Source: an archaeon (GTDB lineage: Archaea; Nanobdellota; Nanobdellia; Woesearchaeales; JAADFO01). From it: a stretch of DNA of 64,000 nucleotides. The stretch spans positions 45,767 through 109,766 of the forward strand of contig JBDRHG010000004.1 of the NCBI GenBank assembly GCA_043817075.1, written 5' to 3'. Numbering within the stretch: the first letter of the stretch is position 1; each line of letters starts with the position of its first letter. Both the position numbers and the translations under genes were made by a program. Shown here in pieces: positions 8,788 to 43,697 of this stretch. The notes beneath the pieces are model-generated. The model worked only from the letters and a program-made list of their open reading frames with translations, did no database searches and was not told the origin of the DNA.

Positions 8788-9059
8788 GGCAGGCTAGGTC
8801 GGGAGGTTAGCCGTCTCCTGTAACCATACATCGGCTTCATGATGGGACTGAAGCTGGCTGAGCGGCTGGGGCCCTGTATGAGGGTCCTGCTCTGGACAAT
8901 GACCTTCTGTCCTTCAGGATCGACGCTCCTGGGAATCGAGTCAGGCCAGGAATGGAGCAGCTCTAACCGAGAACGCTGATGCTTGGAGGGTCGCGGAAGG
9001 GAGAAACGAACAGGGTCGCCTTTGTGCGGAACCTCAGTTCATCGGTCGGCATGCCTGCC
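8788..9059 (+). ncRNA. ffs: signal recognition particle RNA (archaeal 7S RNA)
   Basis: 5' GGCAGGCUAGGUCGGGAGGUUAGCCGUCUCCUGUAACC closely matches the archaeal Alu-domain consensus (GCUAGGCCGGGGGGUUCGGCGUCCCCUGUAACC). The S-domain helix-8 motif GUCAGGCCAGGAAUGGAGCAGC is present. The 5' ggcaggc pairs with the 3' gcctgcc. Length is about 270 nt, followed by T-runs. Confidence 0.88.
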
Positions 9060-9124
9060 TCTTTTACTATTTTCTGAGGACGAAATTCGATTCTTTTATA
9101 AATAATTCTTGGTTATCCGTACCG

Positions 9125-9932: not shown

Positions 9933-11702
9933 ATGCAAGGACAGGATTTCGCGTTTTACGGCAGGCAAGCGATCATCAAGAGCGACGGAAGCATCCCGAC
10001 AGAGTCGGCACAACTCACATACTCAAGCCTCTTCAAGCGACTTGTCAAAGATCACCTCGCAATCCTCCGGGAGAAAGATTCGCCTCTCCTCGCCGTCATC
10101 CCCGATGGCCTTTCGGATGATCAACAAGACGCACTCGTCCTCAAGCTCCTCCAAGAGCTCTCCATGAACACGAAAGAGGAAGTGACCACTGACAATTCTT
10201 CTCTCGCCCCGTTCTTCGAAGACATCGAGATGCTGCACCAATTCGTCGAGCAGCTCTATAACTACTGGCGTAACTACGAGCGGTTCTTCGTGCATTATTC
10301 CCAAAGCAAAGGGGAGAACAAGGTCCCTGCCAAAAAGACGCCTTACCGCACGTTCCAGGTGACCATCGAGTCGCTCAACCATCTCGTCCGCAAGGTGTAT
10401 CGGGATATCGCCAAGAACATCACGCATCATCATCTTCGCATCTACCGCCAGATGCCGGCCGGCGCCCAAGTCGGTCTCATCGTCAGCGAAGAGGAGTGGA
10501 ATTGCCCTTCTACCTACGACCATCTCAAGAAGATTCCCTTCATCCGGAGGCTCCTCATCGAGCCCCCGCTCATCATCGATCCGCCCATGAACAAGCGTAA
10601 CGGGCAATTCTCTCAGGTCAAGGAGAACCCGATCGCGGACGTGGATTTCACAGACGGGGATTGGCTCTGCTATCCTGCCAAGGTCGGCGACCTGCTCATC
10701 CACCTCTTCTTCCACAACAAGTTCATCGGTCTGGGCACGGCATGCGCCAACCTCTTCGACCTCGCCGAAGAAGAGGACCTCAAACGGAAACCCGATGCCA
10801 TCTATGCTTATGGCGTGCCTGCCGAGAAATTGAAGAGGTTCGGCGACCTGCCCACTGTCTTCTACGAGGACGACGACAATGGCATCATGGTGGGTGCGGT
10901 TCCTGATGGCGACGAGTTCGGCTACTTCGGCTATGTCAAGAAGATGATGCTGACGCTGCACAACATCATCCAGATGAAGCGGGGTCGCATACCCTTGCAC
11001 GGTGCCATGGTGCGCATCAGTCTCAAGGACGGAAAATCCGCCAACATCATCATCGTCGGCGACAGCGGCGCAGGCAAGTCAGAATCGCTCGAAGCTTTCC
11101 GGGTGCTCGCCGACAAGCATATCCGGGACATGGTCATCGTCTTCGACGACATGGGCTCGCTCGAGCTCACCGATGACGGCAAACTCAAGGCCTACGGCAC
11201 TGAGACCGGCGCATTTGTCCGTCTGGACGACCTCCAGCCGGGTTTCGCATTCGGCAATCTGGACCGTTCCATCATCATGAGCCCTCAGAAGATCAATGCC
11301 CGTGCCGTCCTACCGGTCACGACGATCGAAGAGGTGCTCAGGGGGAACAGCGTCGACTACTTCCTCTACGCCAACAATTATGAGGAGGTCGATGACGACC
11401 ATCCTTTCTTCCAGGAATTCTCCGAGCCCGAAGAAGCCATGGCGGTCTTCAAGAAGGGCGCGCGCATCGGCAAGGGCACGACCACAGAGACTGGACTGGT
11501 GCAGACCTATTTCGCCAATATCTTCGGTCCCGCCCAGTACAAAGAATTGCATGACGGGCTCGCGCCGAAATTCTTCAAGGCGCTCTTCGATTCAGGTGTG
11601 CGTGTCGCTGAGCTCCGCACAAGGCTCGCCATCCCTGGCTTCGAGAACAAGGGTCCTGAGACCGCGGCCGAGGCACTGTTTGACGTGATCAGGAATAGTT
11701 AG
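9933..11702 (+). CDS. large HPr-kinase/PEP-carboxykinase-like P-loop protein, function unknown
   Basis: 589 aa with GGAGGT 8 nt upstream of the ATG. The C-terminal half has LHGAMVRISL.DGKSANIIIVGDSGAGKSESLEAFR ... VIVFDDMG, resembling the HprK/P C-terminal catalytic domain (GxSGxGKSE...DD). The N-terminal ~350 aa is unrecognised. Confidence 0.6.
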   Translation: MQGQDFAFYGRQAIIKSDGSIPTESAQLTYSSLFKRLVKDHLAILREKDSPLLAVIPDGLSDDQQDALVLKLLQELSMNTKEEVTTDNSSLAPFFEDIEMLHQFVEQLYNYWRNYERFFVHYSQSKGENKVPAKKTPYRTFQVTIESLNHLVRKVYRDIAKNITHHHLRIYRQMPAGAQVGLIVSEEEWNCPSTYDHLKKIPFIRRLLIEPPLIIDPPMNKRNGQFSQVKENPIADVDFTDGDWLCYPAKVGDLLIHLFFHNKFIGLGTACANLFDLAEEEDLKRKPDAIYAYGVPAEKLKRFGDLPTVFYEDDDNGIMVGAVPDGDEFGYFGYVKKMMLTLHNIIQMKRGRIPLHGAMVRISLKDGKSANIIIVGDSGAGKSESLEAFRVLADKHIRDMVIVFDDMGSLELTDDGKLKAYGTETGAFVRLDDLQPGFAFGNLDRSIIMSPQKINARAVLPVTTIEEVLRGNSVDYFLYANNYEEVDDDHPFFQEFSEPEEAMAVFKKGARIGKGTTTETGLVQTYFANIFGPAQYKELHDGLAPKFFKALFDSGVRVAELRTRLAIPGFENKGPETAAEALFDVIRNS

Positions 11703-20615: not shown

Positions 20616-21284
20616 ATGTTCCCAGACATCACTGATATCATCACCCTCCTCAAGGCGCACCAGGAGGGCGAATACAAGGATTCCTTGGAATTCACGATAC
20701 TCAACGGATTCGTTAAGGATACGGATGTCTCGGATGATGAAGCCGCAGAGTTCACAACCGAACACAAAATTTTTACCGATGCGTCAGAAGCGAAAGATGC
20801 GCTTGCTGGGTATGCTCTCGGAAGCGATTATAACACCTATCGCATATCCATTTCATCGGGAGAGGTCTCGGGCGCCATCAATGGACTATACGATGAGCAT
20901 CAAGAACTCATCACCTACCTTCAAGCTGCGCTTCCCTATTCTGTCGAGGGAGGCGGGCTGCTTCCTCTGCTAGAACAGTATGTGAGTCGCGGAAGGCTCG
21001 GGGTCCTAAAATTCTTCACTGTCCATGCTGATGTGGATGAGCCGGCATTGTTTGCCAAGTCACCAGCTGCCAACAGCCTGTACAAAGAGAAATCCAAAGA
21101 AAAGACCACGACGATGTACGAACATATTCTCAATGTGGAACTGGAAAAATGGGAGGACGTTGCCTCGAAGACCAAGGGGCCGGATAAAAAAGAGGAACGT
21201 CAGGACATCACGACTAGTCTTCCCGTCTACGACAAGAATCTCCAGGACGCGCTCTGGACCATGAAGCCGCTCTTCAAGTCGTAG
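20616..21284 (+). CDS. hypothetical acidic protein
   Basis: 222-aa ORF starting at ATG with protein-like composition. No motif recognised. Confidence 0.45.
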   Translation: MFPDITDIITLLKAHQEGEYKDSLEFTILNGFVKDTDVSDDEAAEFTTEHKIFTDASEAKDALAGYALGSDYNTYRISISSGEVSGAINGLYDEHQELITYLQAALPYSVEGGGLLPLLEQYVSRGRLGVLKFFTVHADVDEPALFAKSPAANSLYKEKSKEKTTTMYEHILNVELEKWEDVASKTKGPDKKEERQDITTSLPVYDKNLQDALWTMKPLFKS

Positions 21285-22680: not shown

Positions 22681-22762
22681 GTTACTTTCCTTTGTTGTCG
22701 GGTCGGCATAGCCTCTGGCGCAAACGGTCGCGTGTCGGTATCGTCCCGCCTTTGAAAAAGGC

Positions 22763-22848
22763 TGCGGGGGACGAGATTCGAACTCGCGCACCCACTAAGG
22801 GACAAGGCCCTCAACCTTGCGCATTTGACCAGGCTCTGCCACCCCCGC
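22763..22848 (-). tRNA. tRNA-Leu (anticodon GAG), long variable arm, no encoded CCA
   Basis: Reverse complement GCGGGGGTGGCAGAGCCTGGTCAAATGCGCAAGGTTGAGGGCCTTGTCCCTTAGTGGGTGCGCGAGTTCGAATCTCGTCCCCCGCA folds as a cloverleaf. It has a 7-bp acceptor stem (GCGGGGG/CCCCCGC), an anticodon stem CAAGG/CCTTG with loop TTGAGGG, a class II variable arm and a GTTCGAATC T-loop. Confidence 0.9.
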
Positions 22849-22875
22849 AGTGAACGGGATGGGGCTCAGGGGCAC

Positions 22876-25697: not shown

Positions 25698-26396
25698 ATG
25701 AAGAAGGAATTACTACTGTTGGCAGTTCTGTCTGTGTTCTTGCTCTCGGCCGTTTATGTTATAGCTGCGCCGCCGGGCGGACCGACAGTGACTGCGACGA
25801 ACCTTGGCGAATACCTTATGGGGACTCCGGGAGGCGTCAATGTCGAGGCAGGAAACATCACCCAGGCCGATCTGGAGGTCAACCAGTCGACCACGCGTTG
25901 GGCAGGTCTCGTAGGTAACGTGACCGGCGACATCGTGTTGGGTGACGACAGCTACAACATCATGTATAGTTGGGGAGGCGAGGGACGATATGTCTATGCC
26001 GCCGATGCCAACTCGATTTCATGGGTTGACGTTACCGCAGCTGCGACCGGCGGAGAGGTTACGACGCAATTTACGTTCCTTTCTGACACGCCTGCACAGG
26101 ACAACTACTCCAATACATTCAATAGCACTGGTACAGTGACCTCTGATGTGCTCGGCTCCGGTTCGATCGCGACGGTCTCTCGCGCGACGACGTTCGCCAA
26201 TGATGGTTCGGACCAATGGTATACCTATGCCCTGTACGACTCCGGTGGTTCGGAGACGGTCTTCGCAGGCGAGGTCTCAGTGGACGGGACGGCTTTCAAC
26301 GGCAATGTGCACGACTACCAGATGCTGATCCCTGAGGATGGCACAGGCGCTGACTCTGCAGTCACGGCCTGGTACCTCTGGGTGGAGCTAGTATAA
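25698..26396 (+). CDS. secreted sequon-rich protein P1 (paralogue of P2), unknown family
   Basis: ATG 25698 is preceded by aaagaggtg. Signal peptide MKKELLLLAVLSVFLLSAVYVIA/APP. Five N-x-S/T sequons. It shares with P2 the blocks GN(I/V)T...RWAG, DN(Y/F)xNTFNS and an aromatic C-terminal strand (AWYLWVELV). The ORF-track start at 25578 is TTG and is rejected. Confidence 0.7.
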   Translation: MKKELLLLAVLSVFLLSAVYVIAAPPGGPTVTATNLGEYLMGTPGGVNVEAGNITQADLEVNQSTTRWAGLVGNVTGDIVLGDDSYNIMYSWGGEGRYVYAADANSISWVDVTAAATGGEVTTQFTFLSDTPAQDNYSNTFNSTGTVTSDVLGSGSIATVSRATTFANDGSDQWYTYALYDSGGSETVFAGEVSVDGTAFNGNVHDYQMLIPEDGTGADSAVTAWYLWVELV

Positions 26397-26426
26397 GGCC
26401 GCGATGGCCATTTTTTTCATTTTTTT
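26397..26426 (+). terminator. hairpin plus oligo-T terminator after P1
   Basis: ggccGCGATggcc hairpin immediately after the stop codon, followed by T7 (26411-26417) and T6 (26421-26426). Confidence 0.45.
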
Positions 26427-26506
26427 ATGATACTGCAAGCAATACCGACAAAGAAGAGAGATGCATGCGGAATAGGTGTCAGGGGTGGCGCGTATTTCAC
26501 GTTCAT

Positions 26507-26539
26507 GCATTAATCACTTTCGCATTAATCACTTTCGCA
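26507..26539. repeat. perfect tandem direct repeat, 2 x 15 bp (gcattaatcactttc) plus gca
   Basis: Copies at 26507-26521 and 26522-26536 are identical and continue into gca. They sit immediately upstream of an AT-rich TATA-like stretch (aataaattaataaagg, about 26546-26561) in the P1-P2 intergenic region. Confidence 0.85.
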
Positions 26540-26644
26540 GGAAACAATAAATTAATAAAGGAGAAGCATCCCCGGAAAAAGTGATAACAGCTTTTCGCGG
26601 TTGCGAATCTTCCTATAGCCAAGGAAAAAAGAGAGGTGAAGTGG

Positions 26645-27322
26645 ATGAAAAGATTTAGCGCATCAATGGTTCTGATCATACTCGCTGTGTTGGCGGTAGC
26701 CCAAGTCGCGATGGCTCAGCCTTTTGGCGTCACGACGGAAAATGGCACCCAGAAGACGGGCACGGGCACTACAGCAACATCGGTGGCGATCACGGGCGGT
26801 AATGTCACCGAAGTCAACATCACTGCTGCACAGATCACTGGCAGGTGGGCAGGCTTCTGGGGTTCGATCACCGCAGGCATCAATCTCACCGACGGTGTCC
26901 AGACGTTCTATGCATGGACGGTCAGCAACGTCACTGGAGCTGCGGTCTACGCGGTCAACGGTTCTGTCACCGACTGGGATCTGATGCAGAGGGCCAACGA
27001 TACCCATATGCCCGTTAATCTGCAGGGTGAGGCGACCGATAATTTCAACAACACATTCAACTCGTCCGAGACGTTCACGGTTGGCACTTCTCGCAGTATC
27101 GATAACGTCAAGTATGCGATGACGTGGCAGGACGGAGTGCAGGGAACGCTTCTCAAGTCATATGCCTTGACGACGTCGGACACTAATGCGGAAATCTTCG
27201 CAGCCAAGGCCGTCGGTGACGCGGATTCGTTCATCAATGGCGTGGAAGCGGACTTCCAGTTGATTGTTCCGGCCCAGTCCGCATACGCGACTCCGTACGA
27301 GTTCTATCTGGAGCTGCCCTAA
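26645..27322 (+). CDS. secreted sequon-rich protein P2 (paralogue of P1), unknown family
   Basis: ATG 26645 is preceded by gagaggtga (the track start at 26636 is GTG). Signal peptide MKRFSASMVLIILAVLAVAQVAMA/QP. Nine N-x-S/T sequons in 225 aa. Shared blocks with P1; C-terminal YEFYLELP. A T-rich tract follows the stop (27335-27362). Confidence 0.7.
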   Translation: MKRFSASMVLIILAVLAVAQVAMAQPFGVTTENGTQKTGTGTTATSVAITGGNVTEVNITAAQITGRWAGFWGSITAGINLTDGVQTFYAWTVSNVTGAAVYAVNGSVTDWDLMQRANDTHMPVNLQGEATDNFNNTFNSSETFTVGTSRSIDNVKYAMTWQDGVQGTLLKSYALTTSDTNAEIFAAKAVGDADSFINGVEADFQLIVPAQSAYATPYEFYLELP

Positions 27323-27486
27323 AGGCGCTCTAACTTTCTTTTTTTCCTCTTTCTTTCTTTCTGATATCCATTTACTTCTCTCCGCTGATGACACTTAAAA
27401 ACATCAATCGAAACATATTTATAGTCCCCTTCTTGCATAAGATATTGACGAGACCCATTGGTGGTTTTTGAGATCGGGGGAAGGTA

Positions 27487-29202
27487 ATGACAATTACGAC
27501 TAGACGTCCTTTGACTTGGTTTTGTATCCTAATTTTCTGCATCTGTGCCCTCTCATTAACAGCATTCGCAGATGTGAATGTCGGCAATTCCCAGGACTGG
27601 AAGGACGTCTATTCAATGATGCTCTATTCAGGCCTCAACGATCAGCGCGGCATATTCCTCAATTCTGAATCCATCATCGGCATCACTTCCCGCATCACTC
27701 CTGCCGATTCCATCACCATGTTCGAATCCACCGACACGCCTCTCATCAGGCGGGCCTTTGGTCAATTGGCCTCCGCTGGATTCGAGGTCAACGAGGAGGT
27801 GCGGTCTAGCAATTTCAATCTCGATCTCGATCCTGAGAACGGCCGGTACTTGCTTGTCTCCACCAGTAACTACCGTCTCGCTTTACCAATAGCCGCGTAT
27901 GCCGTCAAGACGAATTCCTGGGTGCTCCTGGTCGACCAGGACAATCTGGATGAAGTGGCGAACCGCATCGAGGACGCAAGCCAGGTCATCGCCGTGGGCA
28001 ATTTCCCCCGCGATGTGCTCGAGGCGATCGAACCTTCGTTTACCGAATGGATCAACAACAACAATATCTACACGGACAGCGAGGAGATCGCGTCCCGTTT
28101 CGGCGAGATCCCCAGTGTCGTGATCACCGACGGATCCACCCTCGAGGCGGAGTTCTTCACGACACCCAATCCTGTCATCCTCTCAGGCTACAACCGCATC
28201 ATCGACGACACGATCACCTTTCTTCAAGAGAACAACATCAAGAATGTCGTCATCGTCGGCAACAAGCTCTCGGTGGTCGGTGAGCAGATACGCGCGAGCA
28301 GCAACAAGGAGATCAGCGTCTTCATCAAGTTCGGCCAGAGCTCGACACAGAAGCTGGGACGGGTCTACGCCCTGACCATGTATCCGATGCCGATGCCGAC
28401 GCTCAAGATCACGGTCAACAGGGTCATCTACAACCCGATCAAGAAAGAGCTCATCGCTTACTACAATAACCTGGGAAATGTCGGCACCTATACGTTGACC
28501 ACGATGACGGTCAAGGTTGACGGCGACGAGATCGGTTCAGCGTCGGACGAGGACGTCATCTTCCTCGGTGCAGGAGAAGTCCTGCCTGTCGCATACGACC
28601 TCGACATCCCTATCGATGACATCGACGAGAACACCATCGTCGAGTTCTATACATCATTCGGCATCCAGCCCACTGAGCTCGACGCCTTCCTGACCATGAC
28701 GAACAAGTTCGGCCCTCCCTTCTCGCTCACTCTCGAGCTCGAGGAAATCGAAGAGGATCCCGCGGTCATCACGCTCGACGATGTCGCCTATTACCTGCGC
28801 TACAAGCGAATAGGTATGGATCTGACCAACAACGTCACGACCCCTGTCTACTTCAATGCCAAGATCCGCAATCTCATCGTAAACGGCCTCAAGAAGGACC
28901 TGTATACCGAGGGAGAGCTCATCGGCGGCGAAGGAGCCACAGTCTACATCCCAATCGAACTCGACGATATCGATCTCGAGGAGAACAGGAATTTCGATAT
29001 CACAATCGCCTATGGCAGCGATTCATCCTTCCTCTTCAACTCCATCGAGAAGAAGTTGCCGTTCAGGACCGAAGGCAGTGCGGGCATCGTTGGCTTCGTG
29101 ACCTCGATCGTGGGCGAAGGATCCATCCCTGCGCTCATCGGTCTCATCGTCGTTGTTCTCATCATCGTGACGATTGTTGTAGTCAAGAGGAGAAAAAGAT
29201 AA
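27487..29202 (+). CDS. large surface protein L1: signal peptide, three Rossmann-like (CWB2-like?) modules, two Ig/CARDB-like modules, C-terminal TM anchor
   Basis: 571 aa with gggggaaggt upstream of the ATG. Signal peptide ..CICALSLTAFA/DV. Repeated modules of the type ..YLLVSTSNYRLALPIAAYAVKTNSWVLLVD..VIAVGNFP... The C-terminus is SIPALIGLIVVVLIIVTIVVVKRRKR. Paralogous to L2 over its full length. Confidence 0.7.
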   Translation: MTITTRRPLTWFCILIFCICALSLTAFADVNVGNSQDWKDVYSMMLYSGLNDQRGIFLNSESIIGITSRITPADSITMFESTDTPLIRRAFGQLASAGFEVNEEVRSSNFNLDLDPENGRYLLVSTSNYRLALPIAAYAVKTNSWVLLVDQDNLDEVANRIEDASQVIAVGNFPRDVLEAIEPSFTEWINNNNIYTDSEEIASRFGEIPSVVITDGSTLEAEFFTTPNPVILSGYNRIIDDTITFLQENNIKNVVIVGNKLSVVGEQIRASSNKEISVFIKFGQSSTQKLGRVYALTMYPMPMPTLKITVNRVIYNPIKKELIAYYNNLGNVGTYTLTTMTVKVDGDEIGSASDEDVIFLGAGEVLPVAYDLDIPIDDIDENTIVEFYTSFGIQPTELDAFLTMTNKFGPPFSLTLELEEIEEDPAVITLDDVAYYLRYKRIGMDLTNNVTTPVYFNAKIRNLIVNGLKKDLYTEGELIGGEGATVYIPIELDDIDLEENRNFDITIAYGSDSSFLFNSIEKKLPFRTEGSAGIVGFVTSIVGEGSIPALIGLIVVVLIIVTIVVVKRRKR

Positions 29203-29263
29203 AAGGATGGTATCGGCAGTCAACGTCGCGATGAGTTCTTCCCATACACCACGAGGGAGATGC

Positions 29264-30997
29264 ATGACATCAAGAGGATCGATACGAGGCAGGCAGGGTA
29301 TTGCCCGAAACGTCATCTTGCCTTTCCTCGTCTTGCTCATCATCCTGGGTACCGTGGTTCCCATCGTATTCGCCGATAAAGAATATGATTACGTCCTCGT
29401 CGCCAACACCAAGGACTGGCGCGAGCTTTACCTGGCCGCCTTCTATGCAGGGATCAACAATGCTGAGCTCATCTACTTCAAGACGCTTGGCGAGGCCCAG
29501 ATAAAATCCGGTCAGCTGGACGAGGACGAAGAGATCGTCATCCTGGAGCCTGAGAAGAATGCTGTGGTCAAGAACTACGAGTCTTTCCTCGAGGTCAATG
29601 GCTACCAGGACTTCTATACGATCGATTACGAGAGCCTCCAGGATCTCCAGGAGATTCTCTGGGATGATGCCAAGGCGGACGGATATCTCGTGCTGTATCC
29701 CGAGTTCGGTGTCGAGGCCGCTTCGGCCACTGCCTATGCACTGGAGCAAAATCTCATCCCGCTGTTCATGGATGAGTATAACATCGGGGAGGTCAAGAAG
29801 ATCATCAAAGGCTCTGATAATGTCATTTTCTTGGGCCATTTCCCCATCCGTCTTCTAGACGATATGACCGGAGAGTTCATCACCGATCATGCAGACAAGA
29901 ACGCCAAGGCCATCACCTCACGTTATCTGGAGGACTATGACGGGGCCTGGGCCATCATCACCAGGATCGACAGGATTGACCCCTACACGCTCACCCAAGG
30001 CCCTCCGCTTCTGGTCTACACCGGTTCGACCGAGGACATCGCCGACCTCATCAAGGACAGCAGCATCACCAATGTTGAGATCATCGGTGCGGACACTGTC
30101 GCGATCGCCCAGGAGGCTGAGATCATCTCTGGCAAGGATCTCCGTCTGGTGCTCAAATATGCGAGGACCGTGACCAACCTGCCTGGCATGGGGGGTAAGC
30201 TCCTTGACTTGGACACCATCAAGTTCGACTTTCCTGCAGTTGGTCTCGAGATTGTCGATACGGTCTACTACCCTTCGCTCAATGTCCTCGCCATCACCTT
30301 CAGGAGCACCGGCAATGTCCCGACAAGGTTCTTCTCACAGGTGGAGTTCGGAGGCGAGGCTCTCTCCGACGACAATATCCACTCTGTGCCTCCGGGCGAG
30401 ACCATCACCATCCCTTATTTCCTCGGTTCAGCCGATGACGACACGGTCCGTGTGGTCATCAACACCCAGTATGGCATCGAGCCGCCGTTGACCGAACGCA
30501 TCAAGACGACCGAAGGCCTTCCGATCATCCTCCGTAACGCCACCTCTGATTCTCACATCGAGCAGTCGACAATCGAGATGCGCTCTGTGGGTTATGACGA
30601 TGGTCAAGGCATCCTCTTCTTGGAGCTCTTCAACCCCACCGACGCTCCGATGCAGGTCTTTGCCGAGATCATCTTCGCTCCTGGCGATGTGCTCGCCTCG
30701 GGTCTGATCACGATCCCGTCTCTGGAGAGCGGGATCGCCCAGATACCTACCCCGTACAGGCGCGGAGATTCCATCATCGACAACAACTATCGCATCAACG
30801 TCTTCCACGGGGAGAAGGACACCTTATTCATGACCAATTTCTCCATGGCCGTCTCCCAGCGTGTGTCCGAGCCGCTCATCGTGGGCAATGTCATCGCTCT
30901 CGGCCCCACAAGCATCACGATCTTTGCGGTCGTGCTCCTCATCGTGCTCTTCCTCATCCTCGCCGCCAGGAGGAGACGACGGAAAGAGGAGGGGTGA
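29264..30997 (+). CDS. large surface protein L2 (paralogue of L1) with C-terminal TM anchor
   Basis: Signal peptide ..VILPFLVLLIILGTVVPIVFA/DK. Modules include ..GYLVLYPEFGVEAASATAYALEQNLIPLFMD..VIFLGHFP... The C-terminus is GPTSITIFAVVLLIVLFLILAARRRRRKEEG. The start is ambiguous between 29207, 29231 and 29264; the gene begins 5-60 nt after the L1 stop. Confidence 0.7.
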   Translation: MTSRGSIRGRQGIARNVILPFLVLLIILGTVVPIVFADKEYDYVLVANTKDWRELYLAAFYAGINNAELIYFKTLGEAQIKSGQLDEDEEIVILEPEKNAVVKNYESFLEVNGYQDFYTIDYESLQDLQEILWDDAKADGYLVLYPEFGVEAASATAYALEQNLIPLFMDEYNIGEVKKIIKGSDNVIFLGHFPIRLLDDMTGEFITDHADKNAKAITSRYLEDYDGAWAIITRIDRIDPYTLTQGPPLLVYTGSTEDIADLIKDSSITNVEIIGADTVAIAQEAEIISGKDLRLVLKYARTVTNLPGMGGKLLDLDTIKFDFPAVGLEIVDTVYYPSLNVLAITFRSTGNVPTRFFSQVEFGGEALSDDNIHSVPPGETITIPYFLGSADDDTVRVVINTQYGIEPPLTERIKTTEGLPIILRNATSDSHIEQSTIEMRSVGYDDGQGILFLELFNPTDAPMQVFAEIIFAPGDVLASGLITIPSLESGIAQIPTPYRRGDSIIDNNYRINVFHGEKDTLFMTNFSMAVSQRVSEPLIVGNVIALGPTSITIFAVVLLIVLFLILAARRRRRKEEG

Positions 30998-35363: not shown

Positions 35364-36506
35364 ATGGGAATCACGCTCACGAAATGCATCGACCGCGTGG
35401 TCATCGGAGGCCTCGTCGGCCTGCTGTCCCTGCTGCGCAGGAAGAAGATTGTCCCGACGCAGCCTCGACGGATCCTGCTCATCCAGTTATGGGGCATCGG
35501 TGAGACCGTCTGCGTTCTGCCCGCCCTCTTCCATCTGCGCAGGCATTTTCCGACGGCGACTATCGACATGCTCTGTACCCCGCGGAACAAGGCTGTCTTC
35601 TCAGGGAACAGAGACCTATCGGATGTCCATGTCATCGAGCCCGGCGCGAGAGGCGTCCTCGGCTGGGTGTTCTCAGGCGTCAGGAAGACCGGGCGCTACG
35701 ACGTCGTCATCGACATGGAAGAATATCTCAATGTCTCGGCTGTGCTCGCTTGGGCTTCAGGCCATGCGCTGATCGGTTATGCTCATGGGTTGCGCGGCAA
35801 GGTCTTCGACAAGACCGTCAAGTATCGCGACGACCAGCATGTGGTGCATACATTCGAGGACCTGCTCGTACCGTTGGGGATCACTGACCATGCTCATGCC
35901 CTCCCTCCTCTCAACTTTTCCGAAGCGGATCTGAGGGCGGCGAAGAGAGTCCTCGCCTCGGCAGGCGTCGATACATCCCGCTTCATCGTCATCGTCCCTG
36001 GAGCGGCCGAGACTGCTCGGAGCCGTATATGGCCCTGGAAACGCTTCGGATCGCTGGCACGAAAGCTCCATCGACAAGAAGACGTCACCGTCGTCGTCAC
36101 CGGCAGCAAGAGCGAACGTGAGCTGGCCGGCTTGGTCCAGACCGCGGCAGGGAAAGGGACGGTGAGCATCGCCGGTAAGCTCAACCTGACCGAGCTCTAC
36201 GCCCTCATCAAGCTCGCCTCCCTTGTCGTCTCAAACGACACCGGCCCGATGCATATAGGTGCTGCGATGGGCACACCGACCGTAGGTTTGTTCGGGCCGA
36301 ACCTGCCCACCCGTTTCGGCCCTTTCGGCGAAGACAATGTCGGCATCTATAAGGAGGGTTCCTGCCGTCTCTCACCCTGTCTCAATGTCCATCTCGGTCA
36401 GACCCCTGACTGCCTCTATCCGAAGAATAGCGCTGATTACCAGAAATGCATGAAGGCGATATCGGTCGACGACGTCCTCAAGGAAGCGAAACGTCTTCTC
36501 TCGTGA
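35364..36506 (+). CDS. family 9 glycosyltransferase (heptosyltransferase-like)
   Basis: ILLIQLWGIGETVCVLPALFHLRRHFP (GT9 N-terminal block) and the C-terminal LIKLASLVVSNDTGPMHIGAAMGTPTVGLFGP (the characteristic GT9 xNDTGPMHxAAAxGxP motif). Confidence 0.85.
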   Translation: MGITLTKCIDRVVIGGLVGLLSLLRRKKIVPTQPRRILLIQLWGIGETVCVLPALFHLRRHFPTATIDMLCTPRNKAVFSGNRDLSDVHVIEPGARGVLGWVFSGVRKTGRYDVVIDMEEYLNVSAVLAWASGHALIGYAHGLRGKVFDKTVKYRDDQHVVHTFEDLLVPLGITDHAHALPPLNFSEADLRAAKRVLASAGVDTSRFIVIVPGAAETARSRIWPWKRFGSLARKLHRQEDVTVVVTGSKSERELAGLVQTAAGKGTVSIAGKLNLTELYALIKLASLVVSNDTGPMHIGAAMGTPTVGLFGPNLPTRFGPFGEDNVGIYKEGSCRLSPCLNVHLGQTPDCLYPKNSADYQKCMKAISVDDVLKEAKRLLS

Positions 36507-36594
36507 TGGGCACCCAACTACTAGAAACATGCATCATAAGATACGTATCGGACAAAACGATAAAACAAGAACATCACATTTGATCATCTGATTC

Positions 36595-37353
36595 TCAACC
36601 GTGATGCGTCGGCATATGCTTGAGGAAGTACGCGTGCAACTGTCCCACCTCTGCGAGTCTGGGCAGCACTTCGCGTTCCAGCGATCTGCACCCTGAGAAG
36701 AACGGCAATGCCTCGGGCGAGAATGCATAGATGCCGCTGTTGACCACGAGGGATCCTGCGGCCTTGGGCTTCTCGACGAATTCGACCACCATATCCCCTT
36801 CCACGACTGCAACGCCCATGCGCTCGGTCTGTTTGCTGGTGGAGAGCCCTACGGTGGCGAGCCTTCCGCTCGTCAGGTGGTTTGCGGCGAGCTTCGCCAG
36901 GTCCTCTTCGCATGAGAGGTCGCCGCTGAGCGCCAAGAACGGCCCCTCGAGCGCATCGCCTACCATCCGGATGGCATCGGCCGTTCCCTTTGACGCGATC
37001 TCCCTGACCATGCAATCCGGCCAGTGTTTATCCTGTCCTTTCGAGATCTCCTCCAGTGCTGGCGAGGTGTCGGATCCCTTCTCCACAGCGATGATGGCGC
37101 GCTTGACGCCTGCGCGGGCCAAAAGGGAGAGCTGTTGCGAGAGCAGACACTGCTTCCCTACATCCTTGGTCGCCAGCGGCACATGCGCGGAAGAGAGCAT
37201 GATGACTGCCTCCTCGATCCTTGGGGAGATGGCTTTCCGGAGCAGTGCCTCCATCGCTTGGCTTCGTGAGGGATATCTTGATGTCTCCACCACGCTGTCC
37301 ACGGCCGCCAACAGGTCGCTGGAGATGGATATGGCGATCTTCTCTTTTGGCAT
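36595..37353 (-). CDS. ribbon-helix-helix (CopG/NikR-like) domain fused to a sugar-nucleotidyltransferase-like domain lacking the GxGTR signature
   Basis: N-terminus KIAISISSDLLAAVDSVVETSRYPSRSQAMEALLRKAI fits an RHH. The remainder aligns by eye to NTP_transferase (GTADAIRMVGDALEGPFLALSGD..HL.SG.LATVGL....TERMGVAVVEGDMVVEFVEKP.....LVNSGIYAFSPE). The expected LAGGxGTRL is replaced by MLSSAHVPL. Confidence 0.65.
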   Translation of the reverse strand: MPKEKIAISISSDLLAAVDSVVETSRYPSRSQAMEALLRKAISPRIEEAVIMLSSAHVPLATKDVGKQCLLSQQLSLLARAGVKRAIIAVEKGSDTSPALEEISKGQDKHWPDCMVREIASKGTADAIRMVGDALEGPFLALSGDLSCEEDLAKLAANHLTSGRLATVGLSTSKQTERMGVAVVEGDMVVEFVEKPKAAGSLVVNSGIYAFSPEALPFFSGCRSLEREVLPRLAEVGQLHAYFLKHMPTHHG

Positions 37354-37360
37354 ACTCGAG

Positions 37361-37459
37361 GTATGAAAAAGTATGAAATATAAACATTTCTATTCTTCAT
37401 CATATGGGTTCCTTTGAAGAAATATTTATAAACTCGACGGTAAATAGTAGTATGAAATG
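37361..37459. promoter_or_regulatory. divergent intergenic control region: 3 x GTATGAAA direct repeats plus a TATA box (aatatttataaa, 37421-37432)
   Basis: gtatgaaa occurs at 37361-37368, 37371-37378 (10-bp phasing) and 37450-37457; the last copy overlaps the gmhA ATG at 37457. The TATA-like box ends 25 nt before that ATG. Confidence 0.45.
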
Positions 37460-38044
37460 GTACTACCAGACAAGAAAAAGGTTGCTGAACAGGTCAAGAG
37501 CTCGATTCAGGTCATAGATCAGTCCGAGAATCTGCTTGTGGAATCGCTTCCTGCGATCGCAGAGGCTTGCATCAAGGCCATAAGCGGCGGCGGCAAACTG
37601 CTCATCGCCGGCAACGGCGGATCGGCCTCACAGTCCATGCACTTCTCGGCTGAATTGACCGGGAGATATCTCCGAGACCGCAAAGGCCTGCCATGCCTCG
37701 CGTTGACCACGGACTCGGCGATGATCACGGCCTGGTCCAACGACTCGAGCTTCGATGAGGTGTACTCCCGTCAGGTCGAAGCGCTGGGGAAGAAAGGCGA
37801 CGTGCTCATCGTATTGACCACCAGCGGCAACTCCGAGAACATCGTCCAGGCGATCGAGACAGCCAAGGACCTGGGGCTCACGACGGTGCTGTTCACCGGC
37901 AAGGGCGGCGGAAAGGCGCACGGCATGACGGATATCGAGCTCAATGTCGATGACACCGCGACGCCACGCGTGCAGGAGAACCACCTGCTCGCCTTGCACA
38001 TCCTCGCAGACCTCATCGAACAGTCCTTCGTGTCTCAGGACTAG
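37457..38044 (+). CDS. gmhA: phosphoheptose (sedoheptulose-7-phosphate) isomerase, SIS domain
   Basis: KLLIAGNGGSASQSMHFSAELTGRY...R.GLPCLALTTDS...TAW.ND..F..V..RQV.ALG.KGDVLI.L.TSGNS.N matches GmhA. Followed by the other heptose pathway genes. Confidence 0.85.
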   Translation: MVLPDKKKVAEQVKSSIQVIDQSENLLVESLPAIAEACIKAISGGGKLLIAGNGGSASQSMHFSAELTGRYLRDRKGLPCLALTTDSAMITAWSNDSSFDEVYSRQVEALGKKGDVLIVLTTSGNSENIVQAIETAKDLGLTTVLFTGKGGGKAHGMTDIELNVDDTATPRVQENHLLALHILADLIEQSFVSQD

Positions 38045-38136
38045 GCTCCAGGCTGACCGGTACCGGACGGACCCATGACATTCATGTACATGCTTGCATT
38101 CATGAAAATCCAAACAAGCTCCTGAAGCGAAATCCA

Positions 38137-39108
38137 ATGGAACGACTCAGAGGAATCATCAACAACTTCTCCGATGTCAGCGTATTGGTCATCGGAGACA
38201 TCATGGTGGACAAGTACATCTGGGGTGATGTCCATCGCATCAGTCCAGAGGCCCCGGTGCAGATCGTGAATGTTCGGAAGGAGAGTCATTCTCCTGGTGG
38301 GGCAGCCAACACCGCGGCCAATATAGGTGCGCTGGACGGCAAGACTTTTCTCGTCGGTGTCATGGGCAACGACGCGGCCCGTACCACGCTGAACGTCATC
38401 CTATCCGAGCGGGGCGTAGAGACCAAAGGGGTCATCATCGATCCCGCCAAACCGACCACCCAGAAGGTACGCGTCGTGGCCCAAGGTCAGCAGTTGCTCC
38501 GTATCGATTACGAGAAGTCCGAGTTCATCTCGGGAAAGGACGAGAAGCGCGTGTTAGACTATGTGAAGAGGACCCTTCCGAAGGTCAACATCGTCGTCAT
38601 CTCCGATTATGCGAAAGGGCTGGTCACCGAGAGCTTGATCCGCGGCGTCGAGAAGCTCGCAGTCCAGGAGAAAAAAATGGTGATCATCGATCCCAAGCCC
38701 ACGCATCATGTCCGCTACCAGAACGCATCTCTCATCACGCCGAACCTCAAAGAGGCTTTTGGCATGGCAGGTATTCCCTATTCAGACAAGGATGATGTGG
38801 TCAAGGTCGGCAAGATGCTCCTCGAGCGAACCCAGAGCAATCTGCTCATAACGCGGGGCGCACAGGGAATGAGTCTGCTGCTCAAGGACGGGACCGTCTC
38901 CCATATCCCCACGATGGCCAGGGAGGTGTTCGATGTGACCGGCGCAGGGGACACCACGATCGCTGCTCTCGCTCTCGCGCTAGGTGCCGGTGCCACGTTC
39001 GAGGATGCCGCCACCATCGCCAACTACGCGGCCGGCATCACCGTCGGCAAGATCGGGACTTCGACAGTCTCGAGACCAGAATTGCTCAGGGGGGTCGAGA
39101 GACCATGA
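38137..39108 (+). CDS. hldA: D-glycero-beta-D-manno-heptose-7-phosphate kinase (RfaE/HldE domain I, stand-alone)
   Basis: Ribokinase/PfkB fold: VLVIGDIMVDKYIWGDV.RISPEAPVQIV......PGGAANTAANI, and the C-terminal DVTGAGDT anion-hole motif. Confidence 0.85.
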   Translation: MERLRGIINNFSDVSVLVIGDIMVDKYIWGDVHRISPEAPVQIVNVRKESHSPGGAANTAANIGALDGKTFLVGVMGNDAARTTLNVILSERGVETKGVIIDPAKPTTQKVRVVAQGQQLLRIDYEKSEFISGKDEKRVLDYVKRTLPKVNIVVISDYAKGLVTESLIRGVEKLAVQEKKMVIIDPKPTHHVRYQNASLITPNLKEAFGMAGIPYSDKDDVVKVGKMLLERTQSNLLITRGAQGMSLLLKDGTVSHIPTMAREVFDVTGAGDTTIAALALALGAGATFEDAATIANYAAGITVGKIGTSTVSRPELLRGVERP

Positions 39109-39641
39109 GAGCGGTCTTTCTCGACAGGGACGGGGTCATCAACGAGGACCATGGCTACATCCATAAGGTCGAGGACCTCGAGATACTTCCCGGTGTCATC
39201 GACGGGCTCAAGCTGCTCCAGCACATGGGGTTCGTGCTCATCATCGTCACCAACCAGTCCGGTATCGGTCGGGGCTTCTATACCAAAGAGCAGTATGACC
39301 TATTCCACACCGAACTCCTCAAGCGGCTCGGGAAAGAAGGTATACAGATTGACAAGACCTATATGTGTCCACATCAACCGACGGATGGATGCGATTGCCG
39401 CAAGCCATCACCCAAGCATGCCGAGGATGCTGAACAGGAGTTCGGCATATCCCTCGCAGATTCCTATATCATAGGGGATCATGCATCCGACATCGGGTTC
39501 GGCAGGAATTCCGGCATGACGACCGTCCATATCCTCACCGGCCATGGGAAGAAGCATGGGGATATCGAGGCAGACCACCAATCGGAGGATTTCGAAGATG
39601 CAGTCGCATGGATCGAGCAGATCGAATTGCAGAAAGCTTAA
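39105..39641 (+). CDS. gmhB: D,D-heptose 1,7-bisphosphate phosphatase (HAD, GmhB-type)
   Basis: AVFLDRDGVINED.GY......E.LPGV...LK.L...GF.LIIVTNQSGIGRG..T......H......L...G......Y.CPH.P...C.CRKP and ..IGD...D. This includes the GmhB zinc-binding Cys motif. ATGA overlap with the kinase gene. Confidence 0.88.
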   Translation: MRAVFLDRDGVINEDHGYIHKVEDLEILPGVIDGLKLLQHMGFVLIIVTNQSGIGRGFYTKEQYDLFHTELLKRLGKEGIQIDKTYMCPHQPTDGCDCRKPSPKHAEDAEQEFGISLADSYIIGDHASDIGFGRNSGMTTVHILTGHGKKHGDIEADHQSEDFEDAVAWIEQIELQKA

Positions 39642-40860: not shown

Positions 40861-41979
40861 CTATTCGAGCAATCCTTTCTCCTGCAGCTCCGAAGTGGCC
40901 TTGTCGACCAGGTCTTCGGCCTCCTGGCCCTTGGACCAAGCGATGAGCTCGGCCATGCCATCAGAGAAGGAGACCTTAGGATCGAAGCCAAGCTTATCCT
41001 TGATCTTGCTGATGTCTGCGAAGCAATGCCTGACATCCCCTTTCCGGAAATTGCCGGTGATCTTGGGTCTGATGTCTCCATCTTTGCCATAGAGCTTAGC
41101 GATGGTCTCTGCCACCTGCAGGATGCTGACCCGGTTGCCGCTGCCCACATTGAACACCTCGTCGTTTGCAGCCTTGGATCCCATGGCCAGGATATTGGCC
41201 TGCGCGATGTCATGCACCGAGACGAAGTCGCGTGATTGGTCGCCGTCCTCGAAGACCAGCGGCGGATTGTCGTTCTTGATCCTGCTCTGGAAGATGGCAG
41301 CGACACCGGTATAAGGATTATTGAGGCTCTGACGGGGACCGTAGACATTGAAATAACGTAGCGCCGTCGTCGGGATGCCATAGGCCGAGCCGACATTGAG
41401 ACACATGAGCTCCTGGTCCATCTTGGTCAGCGCATAGACAGAATTTATCTCCTGATTCTTGGTCTCTGGTGTGGGTTCAGGCGTGAGCACCATGCCGCAT
41501 AAGGGGCAATGCACTTCCCAGTCGCCGCCCTTCATCTGCTCCACAGGTCTGAGCGACGGTGACACCGGTCCGCAGGCCTTGCACACATAAGCGCCTTCAC
41601 CGTATGTCGACATGCTCGAGGCGACCACGACCTTCTTGATGTCGTGTTCTTCATTGGCCAGGACATCGAGCATATTCGCGGTGCCCATGGTATTGACCCC
41701 AACATATCGGGAAATCTGGTACATGCTCTGTCCCACCCCGACCATGGCGGCCTGGTGGAGGAGTATGTCGACATCCTGCATCGCGCTTTTGAGCGATGAG
41801 CGGTCCAGCACATCCCCTTTTATCAGCTCTGCTTCTTTATTGAGGTAATCCGGAGCGGCTTTGTGGACCTGCGGCTCGAAGTTGTCAAGGATACGGACAT
41901 CATGACCCTTTTCCACGAGAAGGTCGACGACAAATGAGCCGATGAATCCAGCGCCCCCCGTCACTAAAACGTGCGCCAT
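40861..41979 (-). CDS. NAD-dependent sugar epimerase/dehydratase (extended SDR) with an inserted Cys4 zinc-ribbon
   Basis: VLVTGGAGFIGS (Rossmann fold) and a YxxxK context (YALTK). An insertion YVCKACGPVSPSLRPVEQMKGGDWEVHCPLCGMVL carries two CxxC pairs. Confidence 0.85.
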   Translation of the reverse strand: MAHVLVTGGAGFIGSFVVDLLVEKGHDVRILDNFEPQVHKAAPDYLNKEAELIKGDVLDRSSLKSAMQDVDILLHQAAMVGVGQSMYQISRYVGVNTMGTANMLDVLANEEHDIKKVVVASSMSTYGEGAYVCKACGPVSPSLRPVEQMKGGDWEVHCPLCGMVLTPEPTPETKNQEINSVYALTKMDQELMCLNVGSAYGIPTTALRYFNVYGPRQSLNNPYTGVAAIFQSRIKNDNPPLVFEDGDQSRDFVSVHDIAQANILAMGSKAANDEVFNVGSGNRVSILQVAETIAKLYGKDGDIRPKITGNFRKGDVRHCFADISKIKDKLGFDPKVSFSDGMAELIAWSKGQEAEDLVDKATSELQEKGLLE

Positions 41980-42002
41980 TGTGGTCTTTCCGAGGAAGAG
42001 AT

Positions 42003-42014
42003 AAATATTTAAAG
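42003..42014 (+). promoter_or_regulatory. TATA-box-like element (aaatatttaaag) 25 nt upstream of ATG 42039
   Basis: Recurrent box and spacing. Confidence 0.4.
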
Positions 42015-42038
42015 CTTTGCAAAATACGTCGAGAGAAG

Positions 42039-43697
42039 ATGATTCTGCATAAAGAGAGGGTCATTGAGTCGGTCGTTTTGGTGGTTTTCGCCATCGCCTT
42101 CTTGGTCACGGGCTCAGGCAACATCCTTGACAGCCAGATCACTCATCCCTTCCCTTATGGTTTCTACGCGTCTGACGCGTTCATGCATCTGGGCTACAGC
42201 CAGGGCCTTGAGGAATCAGGGGCCTGGCAGCATTACCCTGCCTACATGTCGGTCGGGCACAGTGATGTGGATGCCTTCAATCCGCCGGTGTTCTACCAGC
42301 TCGGGGTCCTCACCCGCTTCATCAACGACCTCCCTTTGCATGACGGTCTCTACCAGATCCTGACCATCATGGTGCTCTTCGCCTGCCTGACCTTCTATCT
42401 CCTCATCCACCGCTACAATCCCAAGGTCGCGATGCTGTCCTTGCCCTTGATGCTCTTGGTCAATTTCGGCAATTTCCGCATCTTCTACCTCTTCGGCACG
42501 TGGATATTTGCGGCAGGATCGTTCTTCCTCATCGTGGCGTTCTTCTTCATCAGCAGGATGAAGGACAAACAGGATGTCATCATGCTCGGCATCATCCTTG
42601 CCGCGATCGCGATGACCCACACTTCGGAATTCATCTTCTCTGTGCTCGCGATCGGCTTCTATCTGCTCATCAAGCTGTTCACCGGCGGCATCACTGTCAA
42701 AGAGGTCATTCGGTATGTCGTCTCGGGTGCCATCGCCGTCCTGCTCGCCTCCAACTATCTCATCATCTTCTCTAAGACCTGGGCCAAGACCGCACCCTTC
42801 CGGTTCCAGATCCTGCGGCTCGAGGAATACTCCGGCAACATCTTCCCTAGCCTCTGGACATTTCCCTGGGGGCTGCTGATCATCTGCCTCATCGGTCTCG
42901 CACTCACTGTGATGGCGCTGAGGAAGAAGCAGAACGACGCCGCGGTCTTCGGGCTATTCATGTTCATCATCGGTTTCTCCAACTTCATCGGTTTTGGCCA
43001 TCGGGCATTCCAGACCCGGCATTTCTGGCCCATCTATCTAGCGGTCTTCTTCGGCTTCGCGCTGTTCCAGCTCATGCGTACCGTGCCTGGAGCCCGTTCC
43101 ATCATCATCACCGGTGCCGTGAGTGTCGCGGTCATCGCGGCCGTCGCCGGCCTGAGCTATATGCCGATGCGCGGACCAGGGCTTCTCGACCAGTTCCATT
43201 GGGAGGCATTCTCCTGGATAGGGCATAACCTGCCACAAGACGCCAAGGTGCTGTACTTCTACGGCGACATCTACAACCAGAACGCTGTCCTCTTCACCTC
43301 GAAGAGAGTGTCCTATCGTGTGCTGGACGCATCCATCGCCAAGGGTATCCAGGAGTTCCGCATCAATCGTAACTACGAAGTCCGCACCACTGGCGAAGAC
43401 ATGTCCGACTATGGCTATCGTACCGGGTTGTTCTCATTCGGATACCATAAGGAAGATGATCCTGAGTTCTACAAGAACAAGGAACGTGACATCTGCGAAT
43501 TCGATTATTTCGTCTTCGACCAGGCCACGAGGAACGAGGTGCTCGCGCAGTATAATCTCGTGGTCTATGCAACCATGGTGGAAGAGAAATCGGTCGAGCG
43601 TGTGTTCGACAACGACGTCGTCATCATCGCGAAGAACAAGATGGTGGGTGGCGACTGCATCACCCCCAAGCAGTTCGAGGTCCCTGCGGAAGCTTGA
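42039..43697 (+). CDS. large polytopic membrane protein with C-terminal soluble domain (GT-C-like glycosyltransferase candidate)
   Basis: 552 aa with about 11-13 TM helices. The first-loop acidic/aromatic motif YASDAFMHLGY is reminiscent of the GT-C/STT3 first loop. No WWDYG motif. The C-terminal ~170 aa are soluble. Confidence 0.55.
   Translation: MILHKERVIESVVLVVFAIAFLVTGSGNILDSQITHPFPYGFYASDAFMHLGYSQGLEESGAWQHYPAYMSVGHSDVDAFNPPVFYQLGVLTRFINDLPLHDGLYQILTIMVLFACLTFYLLIHRYNPKVAMLSLPLMLLVNFGNFRIFYLFGTWIFAAGSFFLIVAFFFISRMKDKQDVIMLGIILAAIAMTHTSEFIFSVLAIGFYLLIKLFTGGITVKEVIRYVVSGAIAVLLASNYLIIFSKTWAKTAPFRFQILRLEEYSGNIFPSLWTFPWGLLIICLIGLALTVMALRKKQNDAAVFGLFMFIIGFSNFIGFGHRAFQTRHFWPIYLAVFFGFALFQLMRTVPGARSIIITGAVSVAVIAAVAGLSYMPMRGPGLLDQFHWEAFSWIGHNLPQDAKVLYFYGDIYNQNAVLFTSKRVSYRVLDASIAKGIQEFRINRNYEVRTTGEDMSDYGYRTGLFSFGYHKEDDPEFYKNKERDICEFDYFVFDQATRNEVLAQYNLVVYATMVEEKSVERVFDNDVVIIAKNKMVGGDCITPKQFEVPAEA

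Follow-up and report, generated by a model that had tools for sequence, protein, structure and literature searches.

Four consecutive genes in a 64,000-nucleotide stretch of the Woesearchaeales contig JBDRHG010000004.1 (hereafter the window) encode two pairs of paralogous surface proteins, the secreted P1 and P2 and the membrane-anchored L1 and L2, and the association of the two pairs has persisted in related genomes through rearrangement and divergence. We hold, with a confidence that is moderate and no higher, that the four genes specify components of a single conserved assembly on the surface of Woesearchaeota-like DPANN archaea, in which L would tether glycosylated P by way of a head related to the cell wall-binding 2 (CWB2) repeats of clostridia.

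All four open reading frames (ORFs) lie on the forward strand at the positions that a sequence-only reading of the window had assigned to them (Table 1), and its grouping into two paralogue pairs was supported by pairwise comparison: P1 shares 31% identity with P2 along the entire chain (E 4e-16), and L1 and L2 are 22% identical across ~400 aa (E 3e-18). A tblastn search detected no further P or L copies in the window. Each of the four translations contains a Sec-type signal with an n-region, a hydrophobic h-region, and an A-x-A-type motif, and all four proteins are acidic (isoelectric point 4.0-4.5). At the C-terminus of L, a hydrophobic helix is followed by KRRKR (L1) or RRRRRKEEG (L2), and a tail of this type was present in every L homologue inspected. 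Together with the transmembrane helix that AlphaFold2 (AF2) models in L1, the translations and homologue tails uphold the proposed division into secreted P and membrane-anchored L. Comparison of the L C-terminus with PGF-CTERM-type and other sorting signals gave insignificant NCBIfam matches (E 0.27-0.34). The two pairs had been described as belonging to no named family, and neither P nor L reached the Pfam or NCBIfam thresholds.

The public annotation of the contig, which is 254.7 kb long and comes from an uncultured 'archaeon', uses the locus tags ABIC95_00660 and ABIC95_00670. The P1 start at ATG 25698 is also the publicly annotated one (P0050, 232 aa), and the L2 start at ATG 29264 agrees with the N-termini of L2 orthologues. 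The public L1 record (ABIC95_00670, 528 aa) begins 43 codons 3′ of ATG 27487, so that it has no signal peptide; this start appears to be mis-called, and we prefer ATG 27487 because the homologues align through the N-terminus.

The databases hold 49 relatives of L1 at 41-51% identity, all of them annotated as 'hypothetical' and none with a Pfam domain; mean column identity in the family is 45%. The closest relatives come from metagenome-assembled genomes (MAGs) of Woesearchaeota, Nanobdellota, and Nanoarchaeia, and the label 'uncultured Methanosarcinales' on several of the binned MAGs is regarded as a generic mislabel. Hidden Markov models of the P and L families were run over the ORFs of 29 relatives' loci. 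In every surveyed locus with sufficient flanking sequence, one to three P genes adjoin an L gene. The order P1-type, P2-type, L1-type is kept in ~16 non-redundant Woesearchaeota/Nanobdellota loci, in which the L proteins are merely 41-51% identical and the other flanking genes differ, and in seven of these an L2-type gene follows the L1-type gene. Thus, the P-P-L-L arrangement for which conservation had been sought does recur in relatives. With orthology taken from reciprocal scores, the P1-type gene stands first, and a P2-type gene lies directly upstream of each L1-type gene that has upstream sequence, except in locus L012, where an extra P1-type copy stands between them. Additional P1-type copies are found in L012, L017, and L020.

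P and L stay linked after inversion (L011 and L016), despite insertion of a MoxR cluster or other genes between the P1 copies and P2-L1 (L017 and L020), and at L identities of 23-34% (L022-L024, L026, and L029); among these last, L026 holds four P paralogues with one L gene and L029 two divergent P-L pairs. Since the linkage survives inversion, insertion, and divergence, a chance neighbourhood is ruled out, and on this sequence evidence both duplications are old and a functional coupling of P with L is very probable. An explanation in which P and L are independent surface proteins that merely inherited their gene order, P being for example a lectin or nutrient-binding glycoprotein and L an unrelated envelope protein, is in our judgment very unlikely. 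It would be in keeping with the promoter- and terminator-like signals of P1 and P2, which suggest separate transcripts, but it has to contend with a linkage that outlasts the inversions and MoxR-cluster insertions just described, the duplication into two divergent pairs in L029, and divergence to ~23-28% identity.

Architecture of the L proteins and their likeness to CWB2 repeats

The AF2 model of L1 (mean predicted local distance difference test score (pLDDT) 88.3, predicted template modeling score (pTM) 0.70, from a 49-sequence alignment) reproduced the earlier description of L as three α/β modules, two immunoglobulin (Ig)-like modules, and a transmembrane helix. The three (β-α)4 units, termed modules A, B, and C, are consecutive and were modeled with pLDDT above 90. 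The two Ig-like modules match each other (hhalign 90.7%, E 1.2e-6), and in Foldseek the whole L1 chain matched tandem β-sandwiches at E ~1e-8 (transglutaminase C-terminal barrels, NCX1 CBD12, and RbmA), which bears out their assignment. The top 50 matches of the whole chain in the PDB were all of the Ig type, masking the head. Because the head is N-terminal, at the chain end farthest from the C-terminal anchor, it is distal, and the suggestion that L forms a membrane-proximal 'base' does not hold.

The sequence-only reading had likened the head to triple CWB2 repeats. CW_binding_2 (PF04122) is the sole recurrent globular Pfam match among the 49 L proteins: it matched L1 at residues 131-171 (15.3 bits, E 0.03), four of the 49 members (best E 7.9e-5), and the family consensus in two stretches (E 2.7e-4). 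Compared by hhalign with nine genuine CWB2 domains taken from PDB alignments of Cwp6, Cwp8, and SlpA, module C scored 93.8% (E 1.8e-7, 75 of 92 columns), and 89.1% with an independent, more diverse alignment; module B aligned in register at 55% (E 1.2e-4). The controls in this comparison, a reversed sequence and both Ig modules, were negative. Among themselves, modules A, B, and C gave weak matches (E 0.005-0.3). Consistent with the hhalign result, a diverse profile of the L N-terminus searched against 177,635 distinct PDB sequences had Clostridioides difficile Cwp6 (5J72_A) as its top match (E 4.8e-7, 32.5 bits), with profile positions 91-246 collinear with Cwp6 154-329, i.e., modules B and C onto CWB2 repeats 1 and 2. 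Single-sequence and first-profile PDB searches (P1, L1, and early alignments) had given nothing meaningful, and only the diverse N-terminal profile recovered Cwp6. Among solved structures, Cwp6 and Cwp8 stand nearest to the L head.

Of the CWB2 residues, L1 keeps D215 (the Asp of the 'DAL' helix), P229 (the Pro of 'PILL'), and G258 (the Gly after strand 4); the R-x-G-x-D-R-Y-E-T start motif of CWB2 is not conserved in L. At the level of secondary structure, the order of elements in the AF2 head fits the toprim-like three-layer α/β fold. The likeness to CWB2 therefore stands for modules B and C, and falls short for module A and at the Pfam gathering score. Judged from these profile comparisons, L carries at least two CWB2-like repeats that are distant homologues of the clostridial ones, and very probably a diverged third, outside the curated Pfam boundary. 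In BFVD, the L1 model superposed on three entries (D9ZNF1, A0A8S5QHK7, and A7KUY3, one of them annotated as lysozyme) over 262-293 columns at 4.5-6.5 Å root-mean-square deviation, far better than all other matches by that measure. These entries probably align with the N-terminal tri-module of L1, in the manner of phage endolysin wall-binding domains. Within the phage collection, CWB2 proteins occurred in Clostridioides phages only, and a homology search with the N-terminal L alignment for CWB2-annotated intermediates returned two family members and no intermediates.

Cwp6 (5J72), Cwp8 (5J6Q), and the high-molecular-weight (HMW) subunit of SlpA (7ACX/7ACY) share with L the tandem α/β repeats of ~90 aa in (β-α)4 order, and the C. 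difficile SlpA HMW and low-molecular-weight (LMW) subunits resemble L and P in that the protein bearing the repeats goes together with a smaller outer partner whose coding sequence lies next to its own. In Cwp6, Cwp8, and SlpA the three tandem CWB2 repeats form a pseudo-threefold trimer; L has three units, with CWB2 sequence support for two of them. L differs from the clostridial proteins in belonging to an archaeon without peptidoglycan or the polysaccharide II (PSII) polymer, no anionic secondary cell-wall polymer such as CWB2 binds being known from these archaea, and in being held by a C-terminal transmembrane helix with the repeats distal on an Ig-Ig stalk, not wall-proximal. Relative to SlpA, P is a separate gene product and not a cleavage product.

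A stalk of two Ig modules that carries a CWB2-like head at its membrane-distal tip is also an adhesin-like layout. The L head might bind a glycopolymer of a host or partner cell, with P as accessory or decoy glycoproteins, and the genes would then serve episymbiotic contact and not the cell's own envelope. Bacterial CWB2 repeats bind cell-wall polymers, those of Cwp6 and Cwp8 being the nearest solved relatives, the family is confined to DPANN-type MAGs, and cultivated DPANN archaea are all described as ectosymbionts. We nevertheless think a host-attachment adhesin unlikely. It does not account for the old and strict linkage between L and P; host-recognition proteins usually diversify fast, whereas L is fairly conserved by the identities given above; and the host of these lineages is not known.

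The P family and its predicted N-glycans

A profile search of 1.84 billion representative proteins assigned 1365 clusters to the P family, 1030 of them at E ≤ 1e-10. The members nearly all stand alone, with lengths of 215-260 aa, and the P domain always reaches the very C-terminus. P1 and P2 have no Pfam or NCBIfam match, no consistent Pfam match emerged across 96 diverse members, and P matched no sequence in the PDB. The motifs that had been noticed as common to P1 and P2 proved to lie in invariant or nearly invariant columns of the family, which comprise G52, N53, T55, W68, G70, G73, D135, T140, F141, Q208, and E230.

In the AF2 model of P1, a β-rich core is formed by residues 65-232 and residues 21-64 are left unplaced, including a segment at ~46-64 (V-N-V-x-A-G-N-I-T-x-x-N-L) that is among the most conserved of the protein. 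The C-terminal strand, which had been proposed to act as a donor strand, is packed into the fold in this model, and the conserved segment that remains unplaced is N-terminal; the model thus gives that proposal no support. Foldseek comparison of the P1 model (pLDDT 65.7) with the PDB gave a best E of 0.4 and a template modeling score below 0.2, an absence of matches for which either a novel fold or too poor a model may be responsible.

P proteins are reminiscent of the donor-strand fibres of the TasA/camelysin superfamily (TasA, the archaeal bundling pili AbpA, and the Sulfolobus threads): they are Sec-secreted, β-rich subunits of ~200 aa, relatives have several paralogous genes for them, and a conserved extension at the N-terminus finds no place in the monomer model. 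The kinship with TasA/camelysin that had been considered for P was not recovered: Peptidase_M73 matched none of the 96 members (E ≤ 0.1), Foldseek was negative at the model quality given above, and no dedicated signal peptidase gene was seen near P/L. TasA-, AbpA-, and thread-like folds are unsupported for P because Foldseek of P1 finds no PDB analogue, subject to that same model quality.

A few metagenomic proteins of 600-785 aa (P0155, P0162, P0200, and P0207, the last encoded at 6001-8358 of locus L028) carry the P domain at their extreme C-terminus. They begin with a transmembrane segment and continue with a Nup98-type S59 autopeptidase domain, in which the HFS cleavage motif is kept, and with what reads by eye as an Ig-like segment, which suggests that an Ig+P fragment may be released autoproteolytically.

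The two pairs also differ in their content of N-glycosylation sequons (N-x-S/T), measured against the expectation from shuffles. P1 has five (expected 2.5 ± 1.4) and P2 nine (2.8 ± 1.5), whereas L1 has a single one (5.2 ± 2.0, i.e., ~2 standard deviations below expectation) and L2 two (2.6 ± 1.5). Of 96 P representatives, 81% retain site N53 and 69% site N74, and the N53-I-T sequon of P1 is invariant in 15 close homologues; no sequon is conserved in the L family. On these counts, P1 and P2 are probably N-glycosylated.

The proposed assembly and its genomic setting

In the assembly that we favor, L1 and L2 would be exported by Sec and tethered in the cytoplasmic membrane by the C-terminal helix with its basic cytoplasmic tail, the two Ig-like sandwiches would act as a stalk keeping the three-unit N-terminal head off the membrane, and the CWB2-like head would capture P, so holding a P layer or fibre at the cell surface. 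Capture could proceed through the conserved N-glycans of P (at N53 and N74) or through its conserved N-terminal extension. Lectin-like capture of P by the head, although unproven, is attractive because the head is the sole part of L with a ligand-binding precedent, because P is sequon-rich while L1 is sequon-poor and the L family is without a conserved site, and because P2 is encoded next to L1. P1 looks like the major subunit, since it is sometimes present in two copies in relatives, and P2 looks like the L-proximal subunit, since it is encoded beside L1.

A gene cluster encoding a MoxR (AAA_3) ATPase, a DUF58 protein, a VWA protein, and a ~142-aa protein adjoins P/L in most related loci, usually divergently transcribed. 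MoxR-DUF58-VWA genes stand beside P/L in L001, L002, L004, L005, L007, L009, L015, L017, L018, and L020, and downstream in L005/L014; this adjacency persists through rearrangements. A ~850-aa Ig-like protein with weak NPCBM_assoc/CARDB matches is often encoded near P/L in relatives as well. In the proposed assembly, the cluster would probably assist assembly in most relatives. A more far-reaching version, in which P/L with MoxR-DUF58-VWA in most lineages would constitute a new, widespread DPANN structure (a Woesearchaeal surface layer (S-layer) or a fibre/sheath) with new-fold P docked via N-glycans to an archaeal CWB2 trimer, is tentative and in our view somewhat unlikely.

The cluster also brings to mind archaeal neighbourhoods in which arCOG01314 (DUF4350) occurs with a COG0714 MoxR ATPase and Ig-vWA or Ig-like 'S-layer-like' proteins (Makarova, Galperin, Koonin 2015; PMC5898192). 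The arCOG01314 protein combines a signal peptide with a flavodoxin-like domain outside the cell and one transmembrane segment at the C-terminus, and the neighbourhood has been predicted to form a new secretion or membrane-remodelling complex (PMC5898192). The relatives of P/L resemble that system in their adjacency to the COG0714 MoxR ATPase, to DUF58/vWA, and to large Ig-like surface proteins, and L parallels arCOG01314 in layout, with a signal peptide, an extracellular α/β domain, and one C-terminal transmembrane segment. L could then be the arCOG01314 counterpart in such a complex and P a substrate or an Ig-like 'S-layer-like' accessory. We judge this to be quite unlikely, although the MoxR-DUF58-VWA and 142-aa genes stay beside P/L in most relatives. 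DUF4350 (PF14258) matched two of the 49 L members at E ≥ 0.065 and did not match the consensus, which leaves a DUF4350/GldG-like homology of the L head unsupported; the best relatives of L are CWB2 proteins; the P/L genes of the window have no MoxR, DUF58, or VWA gene within 64 kb; and the predicted complex has never been demonstrated experimentally. L also differs from arCOG01314 by two additional Ig domains, and the published description does not include P.

Several points weigh against the proposed tethering of P by L. Contact between P and L, like glycosylation, the choice of lattice or fibre, and the role of MoxR, is at present inferred only, from genes and models. Module A has no detectable sequence similarity to CWB2 (hhalign E 0.5), and the L consensus, at 21.9 bits, stays below the gathering threshold of CW_binding_2 (24.9 bits). 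The AF2 model of P1 is of moderate quality (pLDDT 65.7, pTM 0.62, 15 sequences). The MoxR-DUF58-VWA cluster is absent from the window. A bacterial-type scan for sigma-70 promoters and intrinsic terminators gave counts not above those of shuffles, and the promoter and terminator calls rest on the eye or on that scanner. Furthermore, the S-layer candidates of DPANN archaea are multi-Ig proteins of ~1000 aa (bioRxiv 10.1101/2023.10.27.564410), so that the ~850-aa Ig-like neighbour in relatives could be a competing S-layer candidate. No S-layer family appeared among the Pfam matches of the 49 L and 96 P proteins or among the NCBIfam matches. In a Woesearchaeota metatranscriptome, 'S-layer protein genes', not named in the text, were among the top transcripts (PMC11606122).

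Among known systems, the closest analogies of L/P would be the SlpA HMW(CWB2)/LMW pair and SlaB/SlaA. In the SlaA/SlaB system of Sulfolobales, as proposed for L/P, a membrane-anchored β-sandwich stalk with a C-terminal transmembrane segment is joined by a secreted, N-glycosylated protein encoded nearby, and SlaB-like anchors have also been proposed in Nanobdella aerobiophila (bioRxiv 10.1101/2023.10.27.564410). The two systems differ in that neither sequence nor fold matches, the head of L is CWB2-like, and the P/L genes form two paralogue pairs; P, at ~200 aa, is also much shorter than SlaA or the multi-Ig candidates of DPANN archaea, which exceed 1000 aa.

Features of the P/L module are collected in Table 1. 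Its promoter and terminator elements are by-eye readings of the sequence and inferential; the sole item kept from the bacterial-type scan is the hairpin with T-runs 3′ of P1. A GGTG-type ribosome-binding site precedes the P1 ATG, and sites of the GGTG/GAGG type trail each TATA-like box (P1, P2, and L1). The tandem repeat between P1 and P2 may be a candidate regulator-binding site. L1 and L2, separated by 61 bp, are probably co-transcribed; the separate promoter- and terminator-like signals of P1 and P2, together with this short gap, therefore suggest a monocistronic transcript for each of P1 and P2 and a joint one for L1-L2. Such a layout is typical where structural subunits are needed in excess of their anchor.

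Table 1. Features of the P/L module (window positions; residue numbers refer to the encoded protein)
Feature	Window position	Residues	Strand	Description and basis
TATA-box-like element TATTTAAA	25548-25555		+	5′ of P1; by eye
P1	25698-26396		+	Secreted protein, 232 aa; ORF translation
P1 signal peptide		about 1-24		Sec-type
P1 conserved N-terminal extension		about 25-64		Contains N53-I-T sequon
P1 β-rich domain		65-232		Ends at exact C-terminus
Terminator-like element	26397-26427		+	Directly 3′ of P1; GGCC..GGCC hairpin, then two T7 runs
Perfect tandem 15-bp direct repeat, TTAATCACTTTCGCA ×2	26510-26539		+	Between P1 terminator and P2 TATA-like box
TATA-like box of P2	26546-26559		+	By eye
P2	26645-27322		+	P1 paralogue, secreted, 225 aa; ORF translation
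T-rich tract, candidate archaeal terminator	27335-27362		+	3′ of P2; by eye
TATA-box-like element ATATTTATAG	27415-27424		+	5′ of L1; by eye
L1	27487-29202		+	Membrane-anchored protein, 571 aa; whole coding sequence
L1 signal-peptide helix		6-23		AF2
L1 module A	27571-27783	~29-99	+	(β-α)4 unit; AF2
L1 module B	27784-28044	~100-186	+	(β-α)4, CWB2-like repeat; AF2, hhalign, Pfam, Cwp6 alignment
L1 module C	28045-28356	~187-290	+	(β-α)4, CWB2-like, best supported of the three; AF2, hhalign, Cwp6
L1 tandem Ig-like β-sandwiches	28387-29076	Ig1 301-415, Ig2 416-530	+	AF2, hhalign, Foldseek
L1 low-confidence linker		532-547		AF2
L1 transmembrane helix, KRRKR tail, stop codon	29125-29202	547-570 (helix)	+	AF2, translation
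L2	29264-30997		+	L1 paralogue, 577 aa; architecture as L1

Genes 3′ of L2 encode a GT2 glycosyltransferase, a DUF2304 protein, a Na+/H+ exchanger, LemA, and TPM; beyond these, sugar-nucleotide and glycosyltransferase genes are numerous. The glycan island described downstream of the module is present as a region of glycan biosynthesis, and is interrupted by the Na+/H+ exchanger, LemA, and TPM genes. At 35364-39641, genes for a GT9 heptosyltransferase, a nucleotidyltransferase, a SIS-domain (GmhA-like) isomerase, a PfkB kinase, and an HAD (GmhB-like) phosphatase are clustered in what looks like a complete nucleoside diphosphate (NDP)-heptose pathway in a DPANN archaeon. The genes further 3′, up to ~63 kb, encode more epimerases, GT2/GT4 enzymes, a GHMP kinase, and a GT87-like protein. 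Upstream of P1, the ORF translations point to an opposite-strand operon of ribosomal proteins and an RNA polymerase subunit; a tRNA-Leu(GAG) gene (22760-22849, reverse strand) lies inside this apparent ribosomal-protein region, and an archaeal signal recognition particle RNA is found at 8787-9060 (forward strand, 148 bits). ORFs at 9125-9784, 9933-11702, and 41979-43697 (forward) and at 47381-49165 (reverse) have no Pfam match, and the 589-aa product of 9933-11702 has a P-loop-like GDSGAGKS motif and no signal peptide. The ORFs at 9125-9784, 9933-11702, and 20616-21284, considered by size as a second P/L-like pair, are unrelated, with no N-terminal signal sequence in their translations.

A two-component surface assembly of anchor and outer subunit is known in kind; what is new is the large, unannotated P family and an L architecture that brings CWB2-like repeats into Archaea. 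The open-access literature yielded no paper in which CWB2 repeats are connected with DPANN archaea, and none on the P or L family. Woesearchaeota have, to our knowledge, no cultured representative, and the P/L module offers a concrete, conserved candidate set of surface proteins for them. For no DPANN archaeon has an S-layer or attachment protein been determined experimentally, as a 2023 preprint puts it (bioRxiv 10.1101/2023.10.27.564410). If P and L do form an envelope or host-contact structure, they would be targets for antibody or tag detection, for the interpretation of cryo-electron tomography, and for the enrichment of uncultured cells, and they would bear on the surface organisation of wall-less, ultra-small archaea and on whether CWB2 modules passed between bacteria and archaea. 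L extends CWB2-type repeats from Firmicutes to Archaea in a different topological role, as the distal head of a membrane-anchored stalk. Should N-glycans of P dock to a CWB2 trimer, this would be the first S-layer anchoring of the glycan-lectin type in Archaea, evolutionarily tied to the CWB2 system of Gram-positive bacteria.

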